Origin: an uncultured SAR86 cluster bacterium
Lineage (GTDB): Bacteria > Pseudomonadota > Gammaproteobacteria > Magnimaribacterales > D2472
Assembly: GCA_902528215.1 (NCBI GenBank)
Contig: CABZRR010000001.1
Span: 128,620-192,619, forward strand
DNA: 64,000 bases
Direction: 5' to 3'
The notes under the pieces were generated by a model. That model was not told where the DNA came from, did not search any database, and saw only the letters and a program-made list of their open reading frames with translations. Of this stretch, positions 2,304 to 26,448 are shown piece after piece; positions within the stretch are counted from its first letter, which is position 1; every line of letters begins with the position of its first letter. Made by a program: the position numbers and the translations under genes.

Positions 2304-2711
2304 TCAGCCAAGCTGTCTACAAGTTTGAAAGTTTTTATAATGAGAATAAGCAACCATTATAGAGCCTATAAAGGTTAAAACTTCTTCGATGTGTTCACCA
2401 AAGACACTCTCACCAAAAAAAATCGCAAAAATTAAGAACCAAAGACCTGAAATGCCTAAATAAAGATAAGAAGAAATATTATGGTTTTGAAATCCAGAAA
2501 TCAAAGCATACAGACTTATTGGTATTACCAATATCAAAAAAACCTTATGAATTAGCTCATTATCAATCGTAAGAGCAATAACACCAGAAGTTAGAATTAA
2601 AAATGATGGCATTAACAAGCAGTGAATCATGCATGCCATCGACAAAGTGATTGATAGCTTGTCAGCTTTAAATTGAGTATTCATAATTTTTTGAGAACTG
2701 ATTTTATTCAA
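2304..2711 (-). CDS. MerC-domain membrane protein (putative metal transport)
   Basis: Four predicted TM helices and the Cys pair motif MACMIHCLLMP, typical of MerC-family proteins. Confidence 0.5.
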   Translation of the reverse strand: MNKISSQKIMNTQFKADKLSITLSMACMIHCLLMPSFLILTSGVIALTIDNELIHKVFLILVIPISLYALISGFQNHNISSYLYLGISGLWFLIFAIFFGESVFGEHIEEVLTFIGSIMVAYSHYKNFQTCRQLG

Positions 2712-2745
2712 GAGAATTATTTATCGCAAGTACTATATAAAGTGA

Positions 2746-3282
2746 TTATGTTGATATCTTATTTTCAATTCTATTTATCATAATATAGTAAATTGGCGTC
2801 ATTGCGACCGTATATGCAATTACTTGTGGGCCTATGATTTCAAATAGAGCGAAACAAGATATACCGGCAATAAAAAGAAAAAATAATTCTAAATAGCTTT
2901 TAATAAAGCCTTCTTGAAATGCGGCTTTAAATATTAAGAAATTAATAGGAAGATAAAGCAACACACTTGTAATAGCTCCTGGGCTGAAATCAGCAAAATA
3001 AAAGCTAAAGAAAACATGAAACAGTGCATTTACTACCTGGGTGGTCATTAAGAAGAATAGAACAATGTGGGCACTACCTCTGTTATTTTTTAATAGGTGT
3101 ATAAAGACCATTATCAATAAAAGTGAAATCAATCTTATAAGCACCTCTTCTGTTGCTATCGCATTGTTATCTGCAAAATAAGTGAGTCGCCAGTCTCTAA
3201 AATTAAAAATTATGTGCTCTTCAAAGTGATGAATTGCATAAATCAAAGGACCTAGAACAATAAGATTTTTAAAATCGGTCAC
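2746..3282 (-). CDS. HXXEE domain membrane protein
   Basis: The motif IHHFEEH lies near the N-terminus of a polytopic membrane protein. Confidence 0.55.
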   Translation of the reverse strand: MTDFKNLIVLGPLIYAIHHFEEHIIFNFRDWRLTYFADNNAIATEEVLIRLISLLLIMVFIHLLKNNRGSAHIVLFFLMTTQVVNALFHVFFSFYFADFSPGAITSVLLYLPINFLIFKAAFQEGFIKSYLELFFLFIAGISCFALFEIIGPQVIAYTVAMTPIYYIMINRIENKIST

Positions 3283-3291
3283 AGAGTTCCT

Positions 3292-3933
3292 TTAGCTTTT
3301 ATAAAATTTTTTATAAAAAAAATAACATAAAGCAGGCAAAACTGCGGCGCCAGTAAATGCAAGAAAAGACGAGTTGCTATCTATTGCTGCAGCACCTATT
3401 CCTGAAAAAACTATCGCAACTCCTAAATTAGTTATTCCGACAACAGAAATAAAATTCTTAAAAGGCATGTTAGATAAGCCTGCACTTAAAGTTATAAGCT
3501 CGGCAAAACCTGGGACTGGTCTAGATAGAATTAATCCAAGAGTATTAAAGTTTTTTAACGCTTTTTCAGCATCATTAAATTCTTCATCAGAGATAATCTT
3601 CTTTGCGATTGGGCGAGCTGCAATGCTACCAATTAAATATCCGATGCAGGCTCCTAAATTGAGGCCTATCCAAACCACGATTGAAGACAAACTCCAACCC
3701 AGCGACATCCCAGATAAGGTATTGGTAAGGCCATTAGGCACTGGCAAGATTACGTCTGCTGTTAACGCAACAATTACTATCAATGAAATAGCCATTTTAT
3801 TAGTTCCTGCCCAAGCCAACGCAGTATCTGCATAAGTTGATAAAGGGGTTTCTAAAAAAAATAAAGGTAAAAGGATAGAAGTAAAAAATATGATACTAAA
3901 AGAAGTCCATTTGATAATTGGCATTAATCGCAT
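3292..3933 (-). CDS. DedA/VTT (TVP38/TMEM64) family membrane protein
   Basis: Polytopic membrane protein with a SRPVPGFAELITLSAGLSNMPFKNF segment resembling the VTT domain core. Confidence 0.5.
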   Translation of the reverse strand: MRLMPIIKWTSFSIIFFTSILLPLFFLETPLSTYADTALAWAGTNKMAISLIVIVALTADVILPVPNGLTNTLSGMSLGWSLSSIVVWIGLNLGACIGYLIGSIAARPIAKKIISDEEFNDAEKALKNFNTLGLILSRPVPGFAELITLSAGLSNMPFKNFISVVGITNLGVAIVFSGIGAAAIDSNSSFLAFTGAAVLPALCYFFYKKFYKS

Positions 3934-3960
3934 AATGTATTTGTGTTTATTTTTAATTCT

Positions 3961-4758
3961 TTACCAGTTATCACGCAATCCTCGTAAGCCAATAAAGGTT
4001 TTTTGACGATCCAAACTATTCACATCAATTTTTAGTGAATCTGCAATTCCAAGTCGAACCTGCTGTTCATCGAGTCTAAAAAAAACATTTATCTCTCTTT
4101 CTAATCCAATATCGCTAATAAAACTCTCAGCATCGAGACCGTTTTTAAACTTATCTCTTAGTTGTTTAGCAGACTGATTATCTGGCTCTCTATCAAGGGT
4201 AAACTCTAAGTTATTTTCAATATAATCATGTCCTGGATATATTCGAACATTGTCTGAGAGTAAAAAAATCTGTTCCTCAAATGTTTTATGAAGAATTGAT
4301 GGCTCTCCTCCAAAATCACATCGCCCTACCCCTGCATTAAATAAAGTATCGCCACAAAATAAAGCAGGCATTTCAGTATCGCTACCCTCATAATATAAAC
4401 AAATATGGCTCATTGTATGACCAGGGGTATCCATTACCTTCAAAGTTAATTCTCCACATGTCAACTCATCCCCAGCATTTAAACCTCTATCAACATTGGG
4501 AATGGCATTCATGGCTTCAATATGAGCAACTAATTTAGCGCCAGTTGCAGAAATTACAGGATCATTGCCACCTATATGGTCATGATGATGGTGGGTGTTA
4601 GCAACTGTTTTTATTGTCCAGCCCTTTTTTTTTGCAACTTTAAGACATAAAGCATGATCCAACGGATCAATTGCAATTGCCTCATGAGTTTTTTCACATG
4701 CCAATAAATACATATAATTTTTTAGGCTATTTCTTATGGGTATTTGCTCGATTAACAT
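3961..4758 (-). CDS. gloB: Hydroxyacylglutathione hydrolase (glyoxalase II), MBL fold
   Basis: Metallo-beta-lactamase motif THHHHDHIGGN, followed by TPGHT and CGDTLF. Length is 265 aa. Confidence 0.8.
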   Translation of the reverse strand: MLIEQIPIRNSLKNYMYLLACEKTHEAIAIDPLDHALCLKVAKKKGWTIKTVANTHHHHDHIGGNDPVISATGAKLVAHIEAMNAIPNVDRGLNAGDELTCGELTLKVMDTPGHTMSHICLYYEGSDTEMPALFCGDTLFNAGVGRCDFGGEPSILHKTFEEQIFLLSDNVRIYPGHDYIENNLEFTLDREPDNQSAKQLRDKFKNGLDAESFISDIGLEREINVFFRLDEQQVRLGIADSLKIDVNSLDRQKTFIGLRGLRDNW

Positions 4759-17813: not shown

Positions 17814-18611
17814 TTATCCATGTTTTTTTACTAAATTTATCGCCCAGTTTATTACATTTGGATTTTTCTCAGTATCAAAAATGAATTCTTGCCCAAACCC
17901 TTTATAGAAGATTTTAGATTCCTTCTCATTTTCCCACTGCATTCTATTTAAAAATAATCCTTCTGTATTTGAGAAATATTCTGAGGGCATTTTCCATCTA
18001 GATCGTGTTTTGTTTGCTTCGGTCAGAATTAAATCATCATGTGTTTTTTTAAATAAACCATGGCCCCTGTCAAAAACCTTTTTTTCATTTATCTCTAAAG
18101 TTTTTTTTCCTACATAGATAGTATTATTTGAAAATTTAGAGGTGTCTCCAAATCCATGAGGATGAGCAATGTTCTTTTCTTTGAGATATGTGATAATTGC
18201 CTCTGATCCTTCTATGATTTCTTTTATTTGTAACCATCCAAACAGATGATGTAAATCTCTTCCTTTAATTGAAAAGTTCTTAAACCATCCAAAGAATAGA
18301 AATAAGTCTCCTGGACCAACACTATTATTTTTTAATTCAGTTTGAGAGGAATTTGCTTGACCGAAAATACCGATATCTTCATTTAGAAGTGGGTCATTGT
18401 GACAATAATCTGAGGGTTTGATCTTAGATGACACCTCTTTTAATAATTCTGTGCCTGATGTTCCACAAAAGTTTAAATCTTCATACTTTTTTGGAGAGGG
18501 ATGATCTTGAGGAATCGGTATAGAAAAAATTCTTCCATCACTGAATATAGGTGAGGCGCTACCCCCTGCTTTAGCATCAAATCCTTTTCTGCTTAGAATT
18601 ATTCTTTTCAA
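17814..18611 (-). CDS. Hypothetical protein, possibly Nmad3-family nucleotide-modification-associated protein
   Basis: The N-terminus MKRIILSRKGFDAKAGGSASPIFSDGRIFSIPIP matches my recollection of the Nmad3 family start (LSRKGFDS..GG.PSPI.PDG...S.PIP). This was not verified by any search. Confidence 0.4.
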   Translation of the reverse strand: MKRIILSRKGFDAKAGGSASPIFSDGRIFSIPIPQDHPSPKKYEDLNFCGTSGTELLKEVSSKIKPSDYCHNDPLLNEDIGIFGQANSSQTELKNNSVGPGDLFLFFGWFKNFSIKGRDLHHLFGWLQIKEIIEGSEAIITYLKEKNIAHPHGFGDTSKFSNNTIYVGKKTLEINEKKVFDRGHGLFKKTHDDLILTEANKTRSRWKMPSEYFSNTEGLFLNRMQWENEKESKIFYKGFGQEFIFDTEKNPNVINWAINLVKKHG

Positions 18612-18985: not shown

Positions 18986-19020
18986 TATTAAACCCTAAAA
19001 AATCTAATTTTATTTTTGTA

Positions 19021-19036
19021 GTCCACCGTCACTGAG
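19021..19036 (-). repeat. glmS-terminus repeat copy G5 (gtccaccgtcactgag), most distal and degenerate
   Basis: In glmS orientation it reads TCA GTG ACG GTG GAC TAC = SVTVD-Y, so the stop is lost. It shares an exact 15-mer tccaccgtcactgag with copy G2. Confidence 0.8.
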
Positions 19037-19154
19037 AATATTAAACTATCTACTTTTATTAATCCTCATGCTCATTATACTTACAGTACTTTTTTTTAAA
19101 CTTTTTCCTATCCATTTTTTTAAAAGAAAAGTGTTTATCTAGTATCATATCGCC

Positions 19155-20270
19155 ATGAAAATAAATTCATTCACGCCGCCAAATAGGATTTTAATGGGTC
19201 CAGGTCCATCTGACGTTTGTGACAGAGTTTTGGAAGCTATGGCTAGACCAACTATTGGTCATCTAGATCCTATTTTTATAAAAATGATGGATGAAACAAA
19301 ACAGTTACTTCAATATGCATTTCAAACACAGAATGAGTTAACTTTTGCCTTATCGGCTCCTGGTATGGCAGGTATGGAATCTTGCTTTGCAAATCTTGTT
19401 GAGCCTGATGACAAAGTAATTATTGCTAAAAATGGGTTCTTTGGCGAAAGAATGAAGGAAAATGTCGAACGATTTGGTGGAATACCCATAGTTATTGATG
19501 ATGAATGGGGAACAAAAGTAGACTTAAATAAAATTGAATCAGCATTAAATGAACACAAGGATGCAAAAATTGTTGCTTCAGTTCATGCTGAAACCTCTAC
19601 TGGGGCTCTTACAGATCCAGAATCAATTACAAAATTAGCACATGACCATGGATGTTTATCAATTGTAGATACTGTAACTGGTTTGGCTGGAGTTCCTTTA
19701 AAGGTAGATGAATGGGGAATTGACGCAATTTATTCTGGTACACAGAAGTGTTTGTCCGCTTCTCCTGGTTTATCGCCAATTAGTTTTAGTGATGATGCAA
19801 GAGAAAAGATTAAGAATAGAAAATCAAAAGTGAAGAGTTGGTTTCATGATTTAAACTTAATCATGTCATATTGGGAAGGGGAAGGTGGCCGATCTTATCA
19901 TCATACTGCACCAATAAATTCATTATATGGACTGCATGAAGCCTTGATAATGTTAAGTGAAGAAGGCCTAGAAAATTCATGGAAAAGACATAAAAAAAAC
20001 CATCTTCATCTCCGAGAGGGCTTAGAAAAATTAAATATAGAATTTTTAGTAAAAGAAGAGGACCGATTGCCTCAGTTAAATGCTATCTATATTCCTGATG
20101 GTGTAAATGATCTTGAATCAAGACAAAGACTTTTAAACGAATTTAATCTCGAAATTGGAGCTGGTCTCGGAGTTCTTGCAGGAAAAGTTTGGCGCATTGG
20201 ACTTATGGGACAATCTTCCAATAAAAAGAATATTGAATATTGTTTAAACTCTCTTGCGGAAGTAATTTAA
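19155..20270 (+). CDS. Class V aminotransferase (alanine-glyoxylate / serine-pyruvate aminotransferase family)
   Basis: 371 aa. PLP-lysine context YSGTQKCL and family-typical GPGPS and HAETSTG motifs. Confidence 0.8.
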   Translation: MKINSFTPPNRILMGPGPSDVCDRVLEAMARPTIGHLDPIFIKMMDETKQLLQYAFQTQNELTFALSAPGMAGMESCFANLVEPDDKVIIAKNGFFGERMKENVERFGGIPIVIDDEWGTKVDLNKIESALNEHKDAKIVASVHAETSTGALTDPESITKLAHDHGCLSIVDTVTGLAGVPLKVDEWGIDAIYSGTQKCLSASPGLSPISFSDDAREKIKNRKSKVKSWFHDLNLIMSYWEGEGGRSYHHTAPINSLYGLHEALIMLSEEGLENSWKRHKKNHLHLREGLEKLNIEFLVKEEDRLPQLNAIYIPDGVNDLESRQRLLNEFNLEIGAGLGVLAGKVWRIGLMGQSSNKKNIEYCLNSLAEVI

Positions 20271-20427
20271 AAATTATAAAGCCGCCCTCTTCCAATCACT
20301 GTTCATACCTGGTTTAAATTTAACAGAGTCTCATTAACCAAATTCACTTTATCGATATATTTTTGTAAATAGAAGATTACCAATTAAGTCGGAATTAACT
20401 GTAATTTTTTAATTTAATTTGAATCTT

Positions 20428-21078
20428 CTAGTTAATCTGATTTCCATTAAAGTCGTACTCCTCGATCACCCTAAGTATAGTTCCGTTTTGATATTCTATT
20501 TTTGACTTAAGTTGTCCGTTTTGATGGTATGTCACAGATATACCATGTAATTCTTCCTTATTGTTATATACTTCCTTCGTTGCTATTTGACCGTTGTCAA
20601 AATATGAAAATGCTGTAAGAGTAACGGTCACACCATTTTTAACATTTTCTTTCCAGCTTACTTGACCATATTCATAGCCAATCCATTCACCCTCGTCAAC
20701 ACCATTAACTCTATTTCCTTCCATGGATGGAAAGCCTTCCATAAACTCAATATATTTTCCGTGCTCAAGTCCATTTTTATATCCAGTCTTGAATGAAAAT
20801 AAAGTCCCACAGCCCTCATATGCCTCAAAAGGGCCATGAAGAAGCCCCCTTTTGTATGACCCTGCCTCTAATGCACAAAATCCATATTCATCCTCATAGG
20901 TTACAAATCTTCCAGAAAATGGAGTATTAGTATTTACCTGATATTTCAAACCCTGTCTTTCAACAAGTGATGACGAATTTATAGATTTATCCGCATACAT
21001 GATATACAAGGCTTCATTAGCCTGTATATTTAGACTTAAAGAAACAAATAAAAATGCGTTTCTTAAAAGTATCTTCAT
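20428..21078 (-). CDS. Secreted MORN-repeat-variant protein (YwqK-like)
   Basis: Signal peptide plus repeated G.....Y..NG / YKNGLEHGKY units. Confidence 0.55.
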   Translation of the reverse strand: MKILLRNAFLFVSLSLNIQANEALYIMYADKSINSSSLVERQGLKYQVNTNTPFSGRFVTYEDEYGFCALEAGSYKRGLLHGPFEAYEGCGTLFSFKTGYKNGLEHGKYIEFMEGFPSMEGNRVNGVDEGEWIGYEYGQVSWKENVKNGVTVTLTAFSYFDNGQIATKEVYNNKEELHGISVTYHQNGQLKSKIEYQNGTILRVIEEYDFNGNQIN

Positions 21079-21142
21079 ATTTTACTCACACAACTTAATA
21101 GTACTATTATCCATTTTAACGCTATCTTTGAAATATTTAAAA

Positions 21143-21163
21143 TTATTCCGCCGTGACTGACTT
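21143..21163 (-). repeat. glmS-terminus repeat copy G4 (degenerate: tccgccgtgactgac)
   Basis: In glmS orientation it reads AAG TCA GTC ACG GCG GAA TAA = KSVTAE-stop, compared with KSVTVE-stop in glmS. Codon usage differs but the peptide and the stop position are kept. Confidence 0.7.
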
Positions 21164-21249
21164 GAATGAAACAGAGAATTAGATTTATTATCCTGAAATC
21201 CTTTGTGAAAACTCTGATATAACTTTATATATTTCTGTTCCAATTTAAA

Positions 21250-21669
21250 TTATATTTCGAAATTATTTAGTTGCTCTAAGGGGTCTTTTCCAAATCTGTT
21301 ATCTCCATCAGTTCCCTTTGAACAGTACCATATAAGTAAAGGAATCATTCCTATGATGGTAAATATTATTAAGTACCACCAACCTGACTTGTCAACGTCA
21401 TGAAGTCTTCTTATGACTAGACATGTTGAAGCAATAATAATAAAAATTTGCACTGGCAACATTACAATTGCAAGCACAATATCCATTGCGGTTTCTGAAA
21501 ATCCTGCAGTTACAGATAAAAAACCAATTACAAGACCAACAATAAGTCCCACAGGAAAACTTGCTAAAGTTACAAAGAGAGTTGCCCACCAATATTCTGA
21601 TCTACTTGATCTGCTTCTAAAATCATTCCATTTTAAAAAATATGATTTAACTGCCTGTGTAAAATTCAT
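21250..21669 (-). CDS. DUF805 family inner-membrane protein
   Basis: RSSRSEYWW and RRLHDVDKSGWWYLI motifs typical of DUF805 (YhaH/YhaI-like). Confidence 0.75.
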   Translation of the reverse strand: MNFTQAVKSYFLKWNDFRSRSSRSEYWWATLFVTLASFPVGLIVGLVIGFLSVTAGFSETAMDIVLAIVMLPVQIFIIIASTCLVIRRLHDVDKSGWWYLIIFTIIGMIPLLIWYCSKGTDGDNRFGKDPLEQLNNFEI

Positions 21670-21704
21670 AAAAATTCTCCTATTTAATTATCTGTTTTGT
21701 TCTT

Positions 21705-21721
21705 CTCCACCGTAACGAAGT
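21705..21721 (-). repeat. glmS-terminus repeat copy G3 (ctccaccgtaacgaagt)
   Basis: Exact 17-mer shared with copy G1. It reads FVTVE followed by K, so the stop is lost. Confidence 0.85.
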
Positions 21722-21766
21722 GTATAAAGGTGTCTACTTATTGGTTTATGAAATTTAATCAAAAAA

Positions 21767-21934
21767 TCAAGGTGCTTCTTTCTCATTATTTTTAATGTAA
21801 ATTTTTCCAAAAATGGCAAATAAACCAAATAAACCAATTAACCACCATTTATAGTCACCTGCATTTAATAAAATAATCGTTACTATTGCTGCACCCCAAA
21901 ATGGTGAATGGAGAATTTGAATTAATTGCCTCAT
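21767..21934 (-). CDS. Small ORF, 55-aa two-helix membrane peptide (hypothetical)
   Basis: Hand-translated: MRQLIQILHSPFWGAAIVTIILLNAGDYKWWLIGLFGLFAIFGKIYIKNNEKEAP. It is below the ORF-track size cutoff. It is the only ORF between repeat copies G2 and G3. Confidence 0.3.
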   Translation of the reverse strand: MRQLIQILHSPFWGAAIVTIILLNAGDYKWWLIGLFGLFAIFGKIYIKNNEKEAP

Positions 21935-21954
21935 TTTTAATTAGACACCTTTAT

Positions 21955-21973
21955 CTACTCCACCGTCACTGAG
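21955..21973 (-). repeat. glmS-terminus repeat copy G2 (cta ctccaccgtcactgag)
   Basis: Reads TCA GTG ACG GTG GAG TAG = SVTVE-stop. This is identical in peptide and stop position to the glmS end but uses different Ser and Val codons. Confidence 0.85.
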
Positions 21974-21992
21974 TAGATTTCTTTGGTGCATT

Positions 21993-22151
21993 TTATTCTT
22001 CCTCTTCAAGTCTACTCCTTCTCTCATCAAGCACCTCTCCTTCAAACTTCCAATTTAAAGGTCCAGCAATTGTTTTCCAATTAAATCCCATTCTATTTGT
22101 TGCAATTAATGCTGCACTAGACAAAGAGTGATCATCATTAAGATTGCTCAT
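21993..22151 (-). CDS. Small ORF, 52-aa acidic-tailed peptide (hypothetical)
   Basis: Hand-translated: MSNLNDDHSLSSAALIATNRMGFNWKTIAGPLNWKFEGEVLDERRSRLEEEE. It is preceded by AGGAGA 8 nt upstream of the ATG. Confidence 0.3.
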   Translation of the reverse strand: MSNLNDDHSLSSAALIATNRMGFNWKTIAGPLNWKFEGEVLDERRSRLEEEE

Positions 22152-22190
22152 TTTGAAATTCTCCTAAATCGTATTTCCAATAAATAAACT

Positions 22191-22898
22191 TTATTTCAAT
22201 AATCCAAATATTTCTGCGGCATCTCTATTAAGAGACCATCCTGAAGATTGAGAGCAGTAACTCATGGTGCGTTTATATAAAAATTCCCCGTCTGTGTTAT
22301 TTAACATCTTTTTCATATAGGAAAGAAGTCGGTCATCTTTTCTAGCACAAGAAATATCATATCTTGAAGAATAGGAATAAGGAGCATGAAACATTAATTT
22401 TCCTCCCTCCGTCATCGATCTGTAATAACCCCCAAGATATGCGGTTGCGCAAGATGAATAACACTCGGCAGTACCTACTAAACGTGTTTTTACCTGCTCA
22501 TCTCTAAATAAACTACCTAACTTGTAACCATCTTCCATGTAACCCCCACCAGAGTTCATGTAAACAATTATTGCTAATCTTATACCGTCAGTATTACGAC
22601 ATCTATTAGGTGAGTCTTCAATTCTATTTAATAGTCTTTCTATTATAAATGGTGTGTCCGGGTTTATTGGACCACTCATTTCAATATGATCGTCATGTTG
22701 AGATCTGTTTTGACAATCTGTTGAATCTATTTGTCTGACGTGTCGAATTTTTAAATTGCTTACTTCTATATTAGAAATTATTTCGTATTTTCCAGAAGTT
22801 AAGTATGAATTAGTACCCAATATATAGTGTTTTGCATAAAGTTCGTTAGCAAAAGAAAAGAAAAGAATGCATGTTAGAAGATATTTATTCATTATCAT
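22191..22898 (-). CDS. Secreted ClpP/SppA-fold-like periplasmic protein (COG3904-like)
   Basis: Signal peptide. The segment VYMNSGGGYMEDGYKLGSLFRDEQVKTRLVGTAECYSSCATAYLGGYYRSM..KLMFHAPY follows the S.GG....lG..iR.....T.v....C.SAC...f.gG..R pattern of that family. Confidence 0.45.
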   Translation of the reverse strand: MIMNKYLLTCILFFSFANELYAKHYILGTNSYLTSGKYEIISNIEVSNLKIRHVRQIDSTDCQNRSQHDDHIEMSGPINPDTPFIIERLLNRIEDSPNRCRNTDGIRLAIIVYMNSGGGYMEDGYKLGSLFRDEQVKTRLVGTAECYSSCATAYLGGYYRSMTEGGKLMFHAPYSYSSRYDISCARKDDRLLSYMKKMLNNTDGEFLYKRTMSYCSQSSGWSLNRDAAEIFGLLK

Positions 22899-22907
22899 AT
22901 TTTAACC

Positions 22908-23141
22908 TTAATTAATCCTAAACTTTGTGATTACTTTAGTATAGGTCTTATTTCTTAATGAAATTCTTTCCTTTCTTTCTTGCATTCTTTTGACATTGCC
23001 ATGAACTTTGGAATTAGACCAAATTTTGTTTGTGTGAGTTTTTATACCAGACCGGTTTAGAAAATCTGAAATTCTTCGATATCCCATGCCTTCTTTGTGC
23101 ATGAACTGGATCAATTTATGAATAGCAATTTGTCTGTTAGT
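22908..23141 (-). pseudogene. Remnant of a serine-recombinase (Recombinase-domain fragment, catalytic N-terminus missing)
   Basis: The stop-to-stop frame TNRQIAIHKLIQFMHKEGMGYRRISDFLNRSGIKTHTNKIWSNSKVHGNV... matches the (v..if.ly.eG.s...Ia..LN..Gi.t.....W....v..il) segment of large serine recombinases. No resolvase catalytic domain and no canonical ATG are present. Confidence 0.45.
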
Positions 23142-23230
23142 TAGTTGTTTAAGAGGTATTAATTTGTTAGTTCTATGAATTAGAGTGAATTCAATAGTTA
23201 TTTTCTGCCGAATTAATGCACCATTCGAAA

Positions 23231-23250
23231 TTACTCCACCGTAACGAAGT
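23231..23250 (-). repeat. glmS-terminus repeat copy G1 (tta ctccaccgtaacgaagt)
   Basis: Reads TTC GTT ACG GTG GAG TAA = FVTVE-stop. It shares 12 nt (ctccaccgtaac) with the true glmS end and 17 nt with copy G3. Confidence 0.85.
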
Positions 23251-23281
23251 TGAATTGGTTGTACCTGTTTTCTTCATTTAG

Positions 23282-24211
23282 TTAACCCTTGAATCCAATC
23301 CAAAACTTTTCAACATAATTATTATCAATTGATAATTTAAGTTCTTCTGTGAATTTATTATTTATTCCTTTCTTTTTCAAAGTTTTAAATAATTTTATGT
23401 TTCTGGTCTTTAGTCTCTCTATCAACTTTTTATTTGGTAATCTATTACTCTTGGAACTATTTTCATTGGGTAATACATATACCAAATTCCACAAGTCATC
23501 TGAATACATATAAGACCATGGAATAACATGATCTATTGAAGGAGTTCCTGAGATTTTTTTTCCAGTCAAAAAACACTCCTTCTTTGGATTTTCTTCGTCA
23601 ATAAATTTTCGAAATTTGTTCAGGTTTCCTCGTTTAGGAAATTGATCTCTATCAACCCCTTTTATTTTTTTTGAAATTCTTGGGGATCCATCCATAGTTT
23701 CTAATTCTTGTGTCCATCGATAATTGATTGAGTTATATAAAATTTCTGAATAAGTTTTTAGAACTCTAGGGTTAATTAATTTTATCTCTCTTTTAGTGAG
23801 GTCATAGTCATAAATTTTGTGTGTTCTACCTCCAAGATTTAAAAATCTTTTACAAACGTCTTTCTTTAAGACTGAACTTATTTTTGTAAACGGGATATCT
23901 ATTTCATTTTCTATTCTTATAAAAGTTTCTTTTTTGAAACCTCTTGATAATTGGTATTCCTTAATTGAATTTTCAACAATTTGTATGATCTCTGGTTTCT
24001 TATTTCTGTTGTGACTTTGATTTAGATTAAAAAATATACACTGATTCCAATAATACTTAAAAATCAATCTTGATAACTCATCAAAATGAATATTTTTTTT
24101 TGGAGATTTTTCACAAGATTCTACAATAGACCTTATCCAAGACATTTTATATGTATTGTCCATTGACCCGTTATTTATCAGATCTAAAACATCTTTTAGA
24201 TAAGGATTCAT
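23282..24211 (-). CDS. HNH endonuclease-domain protein with uncharacterised N-terminal domain
   Basis: C-terminal HNH core PSIDHVIPWSYMYSDDLWNLVYVLPNENSSKSNRLP. The roughly 220-aa N-terminal region (DNTYKMSWIRSIVESC...) was not recognised. The start overlaps the HIT stop (TAATG). Confidence 0.7.
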   Translation of the reverse strand: MNPYLKDVLDLINNGSMDNTYKMSWIRSIVESCEKSPKKNIHFDELSRLIFKYYWNQCIFFNLNQSHNRNKKPEIIQIVENSIKEYQLSRGFKKETFIRIENEIDIPFTKISSVLKKDVCKRFLNLGGRTHKIYDYDLTKREIKLINPRVLKTYSEILYNSINYRWTQELETMDGSPRISKKIKGVDRDQFPKRGNLNKFRKFIDEENPKKECFLTGKKISGTPSIDHVIPWSYMYSDDLWNLVYVLPNENSSKSNRLPNKKLIERLKTRNIKLFKTLKKKGINNKFTEELKLSIDNNYVEKFWIGFKG

Positions 24212-24591
24212 TAATATTTTTGTTTAGTGGGAATAACTCCTCTCACTCCACCTGTTGGATCTTCAACATCATTATGGTATCTCGGGATAATATGTATGTG
24301 TAAGTGATCAACTGTCTGACCACTTACCTCTCCACAATTTATTCCAATATTGAATCCGGGGGGATCAAATTTTTTTACCAAAAATTCTTTTGTTTGAAAA
24401 AGGAGACGGTTGAGTCCAATAACTTCATCGTCAGTTGAATCAAAATAGTTTGAATAAACTCTGTGAGGAACAACGAGACAATGACCTTCACTTACTGGAA
24501 ATTTGTCGAAAATAACAAAACCTGAAGAATTTTCAAAAATACGTTCTCTATTATCTAAAAATGGACTTATAAAATTTCCAGAATTACTCAC
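24211..24591 (-). CDS. HIT (histidine triad) family nucleotide hydrolase/transferase
   Basis: Histidine triad HLHIHIIPR and EGHCLVVP motifs. GTG start 30 nt downstream of the glmS stop. Confidence 0.8.
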   Translation of the reverse strand: MSNSGNFISPFLDNRERIFENSSGFVIFDKFPVSEGHCLVVPHRVYSNYFDSTDDEVIGLNRLLFQTKEFLVKKFDPPGFNIGINCGEVSGQTVDHLHIHIIPRYHNDVEDPTGGVRGVIPTKQKY

Positions 24592-24621
24592 AACTTACCG
24601 TTTTAACTGGTACAACCAAAT

Positions 24622-26448
<1,827 letters not shown>

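Follow-up and report, generated by a model that had tools for sequence, protein, structure and literature searches.

The layout of modification-dependent restriction enzymes is a sensor domain followed by an HNH nuclease domain (PMC6765204; PMC11037411). These type IV enzymes include the SRA-HNH proteins TagI and ScoA3IV, the EVE-HNH protein VcaM4I, the PUA-winged helix-HNH protein HhiV4I, winged helix-HNH proteins, and McrA. SauUSI combines a PLD nuclease and a helicase with DUF3427, the domain recognizing 5-methylcytosine and 5-hydroxymethylcytosine in SauUSI and in T4gt-restricting enzymes (PMC3141236; PMC6765204). A MutT/NUDIX gene whose role is unexplained shows linkage to at least 60 SauUSI homologues (PMC3141236), and deletion of the linked NUDIX gene in Staphylococcus aureus gave no transformable phenotype, unlike deletion of sauUSI (PMC3312211). 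Here, we describe a pair of overlapping genes that encode a HIT protein and an HNH nuclease directly after glmS in an uncultured SAR86 cluster bacterium. The pair lies in a 64,000-nt stretch of contig CABZRR010000001.1 (assembly GCA_902528215.1, positions 128,620 to 192,619), hereafter the window. The linkage of SauUSI to a pyrophosphohydrolase, reported in 2011, was never explained, and the HNH family described here repeats such a pairing with four enzyme types of three unrelated folds.

Like the type IV sensor-HNH enzymes, the 309-aa HNH protein carries a presumed sensor at its N-terminus and an HNH domain at its C-terminus. It likewise belongs to a family that has no adjacent cognate DNA methyltransferase and is spread patchily by horizontal transfer in islands and plasmids. 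In contrast, its N-terminal domain is not of the SRA, PUA/EVE, DUF3427, or DpnI-type winged helix kind, and no solved fold matched it. The HNH family also usually comes with a coupled nucleotide-hydrolase gene, a partner that goes unmentioned for the type IV enzymes in the term-searched passages of the sources (PMC6765204; PMC11037411). The likeness to SauUSI lies in the link between a nuclease, here putatively a restriction nuclease, and an enzyme that cleaves nucleoside polyphosphates (PMC3141236; PMC3312211). The NUDIX deletion did not produce the transformable phenotype there, and the partner is likewise absent from about a quarter of loci here. Firmicute members of the HNH family even lie in clusters that hold SauUSI-like genes. 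Unlike SauUSI, the nuclease is of HNH rather than PLD type, is only 309 aa long, has no helicase and a different sensor, and is partnered by HIT or PRA-PH rather than NUDIX.

No named system in PADLOC-DB v2 (2023) matched the pair, and the matches were at the domain level only, to a Cas9 HNH region (E about 1e-6) and to the HIT-family model 'ThsC' (E = 1.4e-8). Neither the HIT-HNH module nor its N-terminal domain was described in the full-text literature searched, in line with the initial annotation of this DNA, which had recognized no named system. The MazG-linked HNH 'Group 23' of the His-Me finger nucleases (PMC5714182) was considered as a possible identity, which was not established; that group is unannotated, and the HNH family here matches HNH_4. 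MazG and other nucleotide-modifying domains appear as predicted, unvalidated defence components in a 2026 study (PMC13092281). The pair is best classed as type IV-like sensor-nuclease restriction, a kind already known. Within that kind, it has an unclassified sensor domain and a partner principle noted before only for SauUSI.

Gene Organization of the Pair

All three genes concerned lie on the minus strand of the window, a point the initial annotation had left unstated. The glmS gene (24622-26448, 608 aa) is followed after a gap of 30 nt (24592-24621) by the HIT gene (24211-24591, 126 aa, PF01230), which starts with GTG at 24591. The HIT stop codon TAA and the ATG of the 309-aa HNH gene (23282-24211) have one A in common, and the resulting TAATG at 24209-24213 implies translational coupling. 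These coordinates agree with the initial annotation, as do its motifs, all of which were found: HLHIHIIPR at HIT residues 96-104, and DNTYKMSWIRSIVESC and DHVIPW at HNH residues 18-33 and 227-232. The GTG start is backed by homologues of 122-126 aa that share the HIT N-terminus. Both open reading frames (ORFs) are real genes and not chance products, because 2597 homologues of HIT were found at E ≤ 1e-5 and at least 896 of HNH at E ≤ 1e-3. The best of the latter reached 7e-193, and nearly all are 305-313 aa long.

A terminator scan found no terminator-like site in the glmS-HIT interval, as initially stated, and the sole same-strand site of this kind inside the pair lies at 23534-23513, inside the HNH reading frame. 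The region held as many promoter-like sites as shuffled sequence did. With a 30-nt gap and no terminator, read-through transcription from glmS into the pair is plausible.

The proposed coupling of the two genes proved to be conserved. In almost all homologous pairs the genes overlap by 1-10 nt, the overlap being 1 nt (TAATG), 4 nt (ATGA), or up to about 10 nt. On metagenomic contigs, HNH relatives with 86%, 60%, and 53% identity had HIT directly upstream with 1-4 nt of overlap, and two further metagenomic relatives were without a HIT gene. HIT and HNH co-evolve, as pairwise identities of the two proteins were correlated (Spearman 0.75, Mantel p = 0.001).

Partner Genes Across Homologous Loci

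Partners were counted at 80 loci from species-representative genomes. The initial annotation had proposed that conservation of the HIT partner across homologues be checked, and the result was mixed. A gene of the HIT clade, coupled to and co-evolving with the nuclease, was adjacent at 19 loci (SAR86, SAR11-like and other Alphaproteobacteria, Alteromonadaceae, Bacteroidota, Chlorobiota, and two Firmicutes). At 35 loci, in Firmicutes, its place was taken by an all-alpha nucleoside triphosphate (NTP) pyrophosphohydrolase of PRA-PH/MazG type of about 105 aa, either upstream or downstream. Four loci of various taxa had neither adjacent but carried a MazG-like (PF12643) or NUDIX gene within 5 kb, and about 22, also of various taxa, had no HIT, PRA-PH, MazG-like, or NUDIX neighbour. 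MazG-like or NUDIX genes additionally lay within 5 kb of several HIT- and PRA-PH-linked loci. In five Mollicutes and related loci, the neighbour was instead a class I S-adenosylmethionine (SAM) methyltransferase of about 189 aa.

Neither HIT nor PRA-PH is therefore an obligate companion of the nuclease, given the 22 or so loci without a partner. PRA-PH, MazG-like, and NUDIX proteins are nucleoside-triphosphate pyrophosphohydrolases. The conserved partner feature is some free-nucleotide enzyme, not HIT itself, and the replacement of one partner by another is non-orthologous displacement among the four nucleotide-acting enzyme types. Partner type mostly tracks the HNH tree. L055 is one of the exceptions: its HIT gene comes after HNH, so that the order is inverted and the linkage kept. 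Nuclease-only members are interspersed among HIT-linked ones and retain the catalytic residues.

No DNA methyltransferase cluster was found among recurrent neighbours within 4 kb at 92 loci. The only recurrent methyltransferases there were class I enzymes of about 190 aa and of small-molecule type.

Domain Architecture of the Nuclease

The HNH protein consists of two separable domains within one polypeptide, as indicated by the Pfam spans, a model of the isolated N-terminal part, and alternative fusions. The C-terminal domain (23282-23611, minus strand) is an HNH nuclease domain of the beta-beta-alpha-metal, Cas9/McrA type. It matches HNH_4 (PF13395) at residues 225-259 with E = 6e-10, and Cas9 HNH domains were its best PDB matches in both sequence and fold, with nothing else found. 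In an alignment of 41 homologues with 50-86% identity, H228, N242, N251, and N256 were invariant and D227 nearly so. The alignment included the partner-less members P0096 and P0120.

The N-terminal domain of about 200 aa (23612-24211, minus strand) is presumed to be a sensor or DNA-binding domain. Residues 1-220 had been called unassignable, and profile searches left them so: no family matched in Pfam, NCBIfam, PADLOC, or PHROGs, and PDB sequences gave chance-level matches only. The same alignment showed invariant aromatic-rich motifs in this part, namely NTYKxxW at 19-25, YWNQ at 54-57, and INYRW at 162-166. AlphaFold modelled the full protein with a pLDDT (predicted local distance difference test) of 91.3 and a pTM (predicted template modelling score) of 0.87, as helices with one beta-hairpin at 134-145, followed by the HNH domain. 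Modelled alone, the N-terminal domain reached a pLDDT of 86 and was confident up to about residue 176. Foldseek returned no match to it at E ≤ 0.001 in PDB or BFVD, and the best match was a weak one to the Cdc6/ORC winged helix (probability 0.54).

Residues 1-215, searched against 1.84 billion representative proteins, found 256 relatives of this domain. Some of them are longer, at 422-1800 aa, and have non-HNH C-terminal regions. Because relatives carry it fused to such regions, the N-terminal domain looks like a portable module, for sensing or for binding, whose fold is unclassified. Annotation of the longer proteins was limited to MTaX1, an RNA polymerase alpha C-terminal domain (CTD)-like helix-hairpin-helix, and HNH. 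The domain has hundreds of diverse homologues and no solved structure. If it is a base-modification reader, it would be a potential tool for mapping DNA modification, a use that other enzymes of this sort have already found.

The domain heads P0233 (1800 aa), P0257 (1293 aa), P0219 (969 aa), P0228 and P0180 (about 650-680 aa), and P0261 (422 aa), whose C-terminal regions are otherwise unannotated. One long protein has the RNA-polymerase-alpha-CTD-like helix-hairpin-helix preceding the domain, and one terminates in the 'methylase-associated' MTaX1 domain.

The HIT Protein and Its Clade

The HIT protein matches PF01230 with E = 8.7e-19 and 68.4 bits, against a cut-off of 21.5, and its NCBIfam matches were all far below their cut-offs. 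The HxHxHxx triad (H96, H98, H100) was invariant in 23 HIT sequences, and the clade has a C-terminal motif of its own, IPRYxxDxxxPxGGVRGVIPxKQxY. The closest solved relatives were an uncharacterised archaeal HIT protein, diadenosine tetraphosphate (Ap4A) phosphorylase, and Fhit, with E down to 6e-14, all ranking above HINT1 and HINT2. The substrates of Ap4A phosphorylase and Fhit are nucleoside polyphosphates, and HIT enzymes of the Fhit branch attack the alpha-phosphate of such compounds.

This clade is paired with more than one nuclease. Downstream of a HIT relative with 75% identity, a 309-aa HNH gene follows again. Relatives with 76-79% identity are coupled in reverse order, nuclease first and with an 11-nt overlap, to a 319-aa DUF3427-HNH_2 protein. 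These DUF3427-HNH_2 and HIT cassettes (L099-L105) also follow glmS, in a gene order like that of SAR86 (atp operon, glmU, glmS). They share the HIT clade, the glmS position, and the layout of two overlapping genes with the HIT-HNH pair, and differ in having the nuclease first, DUF3427 as the sensor, and HNH_2 instead of HNH_4. The DUF3427-HNH_2/HIT genes lie at about 5052-6375 in L099-L103 and also occur in L104 and L105. On some of these contigs, a DEAD/ResIII helicase comes next, along with an N6-methylase that carries a specificity domain.

Among the best 80 metagenomic loci of the HIT clade, the HNH family was adjacent in 27 and DUF3427-HNH in 2. In seven of these 27, an ORF of 286-288 aa joins a methyltransferase to HIT. 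Other neighbours were ResIII/DEAD or UvrD helicases, a RecA-like ATPase, and DUF6997, along with some ordinary metabolic genes. A class I SAM methyltransferase-HIT fusion follows a more distant HNH protein of 355-373 aa in all five loci inspected (L112 at 2379-4351, L115, L122, L133, L142). In four of these five, the HNH partner has the related N-terminal motif (S/T)TYKFALLRGV, and L122 has ATYKFYWL. In L133, the fusion is followed by a 1332-aa protein with DEAD and UvrD helicase domains.

Genomic Context and Distribution

The HNH family shows a patchy, horizontal distribution across Proteobacteria, Bacteroidota, Firmicutes, Mollicutes, and one archaeal metagenome-assembled genome (MAG). Its pairs with PRA-PH in Firmicutes sit in conserved clusters with SauUSI-like PLD-ResIII-helicase-DUF3427 proteins, NUDIX, MazG-like, Mrr_cat, SLFN group 3 (DUF2075) helicase, and UvrD/RQC helicase. 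Such clusters were seen in L056 (1007-8149), L061 (4420-10975), L065 (4764-9957), L071 (6465-14382), L045, and L081, and up to three types of nucleotide pyrophosphohydrolase occur within one cluster. Six plasmids carry the HNH family, two of them beside defence genes. On a Priestia plasmid, an HNH relative adjoins an AAA-ATPase plus HNH pair and ImmA/IrrE; on an Acinetobacter plasmid, type I-F CRISPR-Cas borders a distant relative that has a class I methyltransferase beside it.

For the marine members, a crude raw count was made of 110 neighbour proteins around 19 HIT-HNH pairs. Defence matches were a minority and comprised components of type II restriction-modification systems, a TIR-like ThsB, and PDC-M60 and PDC-S18 candidates. 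Enrichment in defence islands, which the initial annotation had proposed to check, is thus clear only in Firmicute relatives, whereas marine neighbourhoods are mostly non-defence cargo. Its broader view of the pair as a small defence module was borne out as to the coupled genes, the separable sensor-type domain, and the restriction-flavoured neighbourhoods, and had to be revised in that HIT is not universal.

None of 50,697 phage records contained the HNH family, and 2.9 million viral contigs gave one weak match, so a phage origin was rejected. SAR86, SAR11-like, and other abundant uncultured ocean bacteria commonly carry the module, which therefore bears on the phage resistance of streamlined plankton.

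Proposed Function and Alternatives

We infer the function of the pair from sequence, structure prediction, and gene context. Tentatively, we favour a sensor-HNH restriction nuclease with an accessory enzyme that clears the pool of non-canonical nucleotides. Four features suggest that it is a modification-dependent restriction nuclease: its domain layout, the missing cognate DNA methyltransferase, the genes found around it, and a HIT partner in common with DUF3427-HNH. The unclassified N-terminal domain, helical and partly winged helix-like, would recognize some property of foreign DNA, a modified base being the most probable, and the Cas9/McrA-type HNH domain would then cleave the recognized DNA. 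HIT, probably co-translated with the nuclease, would act on free nucleotides and not on DNA. Like the PRA-PH, MazG-like, and NUDIX proteins that replace it, HIT may attack the alpha-phosphate of modified nucleoside polyphosphates. Modified nucleotides, whether from phage synthesis or from salvage of degraded invader DNA, would in this way be kept out of the host chromosome, so that no self-restriction occurs, and phages that depend on them would also be starved of precursors. Human DCTPP1 and Escherichia coli NudG, which prefer 5-methyl-dCTP, offer analogies for such a role. The absence of the transformable phenotype on deletion of the SauUSI-linked NUDIX gene and the existence of nuclease-only cassettes would both fit an accessory role of the partner.

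Several observations weigh against this interpretation. The N-terminal domain falls outside every modified-base reader family compared (SRA, PUA/EVE/YTH, DUF3427, DpnI-type winged helix, SBD, and NEco). Because the sensor belongs to no reader family and has no significant fold match, the proposed modification dependence draws on architecture and association alone. Typical HIT substrates are nucleoside monophosphate conjugates (NMP-X) or dinucleoside polyphosphates (NpnN), not deoxynucleoside triphosphates. Around the marine pairs, most neighbours are ordinary genes or island cargo, among them glmS/glmU, MerC, cupins, and HAD hydrolases. In addition, small class I SAM methyltransferases are recurrent, alone in Mollicutes and on the Acinetobacter plasmid and fused to HIT in another clade, and it is not obvious how pool sanitation would explain a methyltransferase as the partner.

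The poor fit of these methyltransferases and of the methyltransferase-HIT fusion to pool sanitation keeps the main rival alive, a nucleotide-gated nuclease acting in abortive infection, which we regard as rather unlikely. Here, the N-terminal domain would bind a nucleotide-derived ligand that switches on HNH, such as an alarmone of the dinucleoside polyphosphate type or a modified (deoxy)nucleoside monophosphate freed when a phage degrades DNA. The partners would destroy or alter the ligand, setting a threshold and holding the nuclease off in healthy cells. All recurrent partners are indeed free-nucleotide enzymes, the small-molecule-type SAM methyltransferases and the methyltransferase-HIT fusion included, and the invariant aromatics Y21, W25, Y54, W55, Y164, and W166 are compatible with a ligand pocket. 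Fusion of the N-terminal domain to unrelated, non-nuclease C-terminal regions is common for sensor domains, and a modified mononucleotide as a defence trigger has precedent (bioRxiv 10.64898/2026.01.15.699771). However, no signal-synthesizing enzyme was conserved in the neighbourhoods of the 92 loci. Intact nuclease-only cassettes are common and interspersed in the tree, so that an 'off-switch' would be dispensable, and the HIT clade also has DUF3427-HNH as a partner, a protein with a sensor that reads modified DNA. The winged helix-like part of the domain would suggest DNA binding, although this is weak evidence.

A toxin-antitoxin or addiction module is improbable. HNH would be the toxin and the upstream HIT the antidote, and the module would stabilize the array as in chromosomal integrons. 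The overlap of a small upstream gene with a larger downstream one by 1-4 nt, the location in a mobile cassette array, and the co-evolution of HIT and HNH would all be expected of it. Yet about 22 of the 80 loci have no partner, while H228 and the conserved asparagines stay invariant in the 41 sequences, P0096 and P0120 among them. The replacements are unrelated enzymes that keep their family signatures rather than binding proteins, and in some genomes the nuclease gene precedes its partner or has it on the opposite strand.

Two further possibilities are very unlikely. A homing-type HNH that cuts the glmS-end target to spread its own cassette, with HIT as incidental cargo or an end-processing factor, would agree with the frequency of HNH nucleases in selfish elements and with a site-specific cassette found next to glmS at 12 loci in several phyla, but other cassettes of the same arrays share the cores and inverted-repeat ends while carrying unrelated cargo and no HNH gene, most family members lie away from glmS, Firmicute members sit in restriction clusters, and the N-terminal domain also occurs without HNH. 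A housekeeping DNA-repair pair, in which an aprataxin-like HIT removes 5'-adenylates and the nuclease trims ends, would accord with the tight coupling of the two genes and with the removal of 5'-AMP from DNA ends by aprataxin, a member of the HIT superfamily, but conflicts with the patchy horizontal distribution, the variable cassettes whose flanks differ between close relatives, the generic HIT proteins, Ap4A phosphorylase, and Fhit as closest solved relatives, and the replacement of HIT by NTP pyrophosphohydrolases inactive on DNA ends.

The preferred reading, a modification-dependent nuclease with a pool-clearing helper, could be part of a wider pattern that we consider possible but doubtful. 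The N-terminal domain of about 200 aa would be a new sensor, of DNA modification or of a nucleotide danger signal, wired to HNH and other effectors, and such nucleases would as a rule need an interchangeable pool-editing companion (HIT, PRA-PH, MazG-like, NUDIX, or SAM methyltransferase). If true, this pattern would explain the linkage of SauUSI to NUDIX, and such modules would circulate in streamlined marine genomes as integron-like cassettes targeting the glmS 3' end. The pairing makes the question testable, as the helper would either block incorporation of modified nucleotides or control a nucleotide signal.

The Cassette Array at the glmS 3' End

The HIT-HNH pair is a discrete, site-specifically inserted mobile cassette. 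The recombination core is formed by the last codons and stop of glmS. Copy 1, which reads GTTACGGTGGAGTA in gene orientation, lies at 24623-24636 on the minus strand and marks the glmS-proximal boundary, and copy 2, an exact 14-mer at 23232-23245 on the same strand, marks the distal one. The pair occupies 1377 bp between them. The 14-mer of the glmS end, TACTCCACCGTAAC, occurs in five copies with at most 2 mismatches, at 19019, 21703, 21956, 23232, and 24623, where 0.11 are expected. Terminal inverted repeats flank the pair, with the glmS-proximal arm GGTACAACCAAATC at 24609-24622, in the glmS-HIT gap, and the distal arm GAATTGGTTGTACC at 23252-23265 (both on the plus strand). Their arms are complementary at 13 of 14 bases, a score reached by none of 200 shuffles. 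Neighbouring cassettes have inverted repeats of differing sequence, and for 7 of 14 cassettes examined in five genomes the inverted-repeat score was above that of nearly all shuffles. The assignment holds because the core copies bound the pair, the inverted repeats are cassette-specific, and the same cores recur in a Rhodospirillaceae MAG (L027) and in SAR86-like contigs.

Homology to SAR86 single-cell genomes ends exactly at 23231/23232 (L013, 93%; L017, 98.7%), the blastn alignments being 1.8 kb at 93% with AG-337-I17 and 692 bp at 98.7% with AG-896-P11. This break and the five cores bear out the mobile array proposed in the initial annotation. The atp operon-glmU-glmS synteny of the window is that of SAR86-like contigs. 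The same HIT-HNH cassette was found in the Rhodospirillaceae MAG and in other SAR86-like contigs, with the same core and with arms that are different yet complementary. Genes resembling glmS adjoin the HNH family at 12 loci in several phyla. That HIT-HNH is the 'newest' cassette we infer solely from its position next to glmS. In a SAR86-like contig (L001), at least one other cassette, which carries an NT5C gene, lies between the HIT-HNH cassette and glmS.

The array resembles integron cassettes in its short, promoter-less, single-operon units, arranged in one direction beside a fixed site, with a conserved core and cassette-specific inverted repeats. Unlike in integrons, the core is the glmS 3' end and not attI/attC, and the repeat arms are split across the cassette ends around the core. 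Nucleotide-hydrolase integron cassettes of the iMazG type and toxin-antitoxin cassettes offer a further comparison. No description of a glmS cassette array was found in the literature searched, and no intI was evident among the ORFs at 7-19 kb of the window, which were inspected by eye only. The promoter-less cassette would enter the glmS 3' end through site-specific recombination and probably be expressed by read-through from glmS. The system suggests an exchange route for genes of this kind.

Four cassettes of 239 bp to 2.7 kb make up the array (19019-24636), and copies of the glmS 3' end delimit each of them. In three of these cassettes, terminal inverted repeats private to the cassette adjoin the core, such as ATAAAGGTGTCTA and TAGACACCTTTAT in the 239-bp cassette. 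Similar arrays follow glmS in other SAR86-like genomes, the Rhodospirillaceae MAG, and a Flavobacteriales MAG. A 68-aa ORF of the window (22908-23114, minus strand) is a fragment of the serine-recombinase 'Recombinase' domain (PF07508, positions about 8-53). Such fragment ORFs of 68-128 aa occur inside or beside cassettes at eight loci of different phyla: the window, L010 (7329-7544), L022 (14300-14686), L025, L027 (10967-11242), L029, L031 (1440-1703), and L033 (6776-7153). These ORFs may be remnants of recombinases that have decayed, or they may encode a small DNA-binding protein carried by the cassettes. In L011 and L012 (7652-7795), a nuclease-only gene adjoins what appears from ORF translation to be a tRNA gene, which suggests a second type of integration site.

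Further cargo of the array lies at 21250-21669, 20428-21078, and 22191-22898, all on the minus strand, and comprises, among others, a membrane protein with DUF805 and one with MORN repeats. A 235-aa protein that looks secreted and weakly matches head-maturation proteases related to ClpP (E = 1e-3) belongs to the cargo as well. Just past the last core, a 265-aa Nmad3 protein (17814-18611, minus strand) matches PF18754, 'nucleotide modification associated domain 3', with E = 4e-54, and adds a further gene tied to nucleotide modification to this variable region. DUF805 and MORN proteins recur near HNH or HIT cassettes elsewhere (L004, L099-L103).

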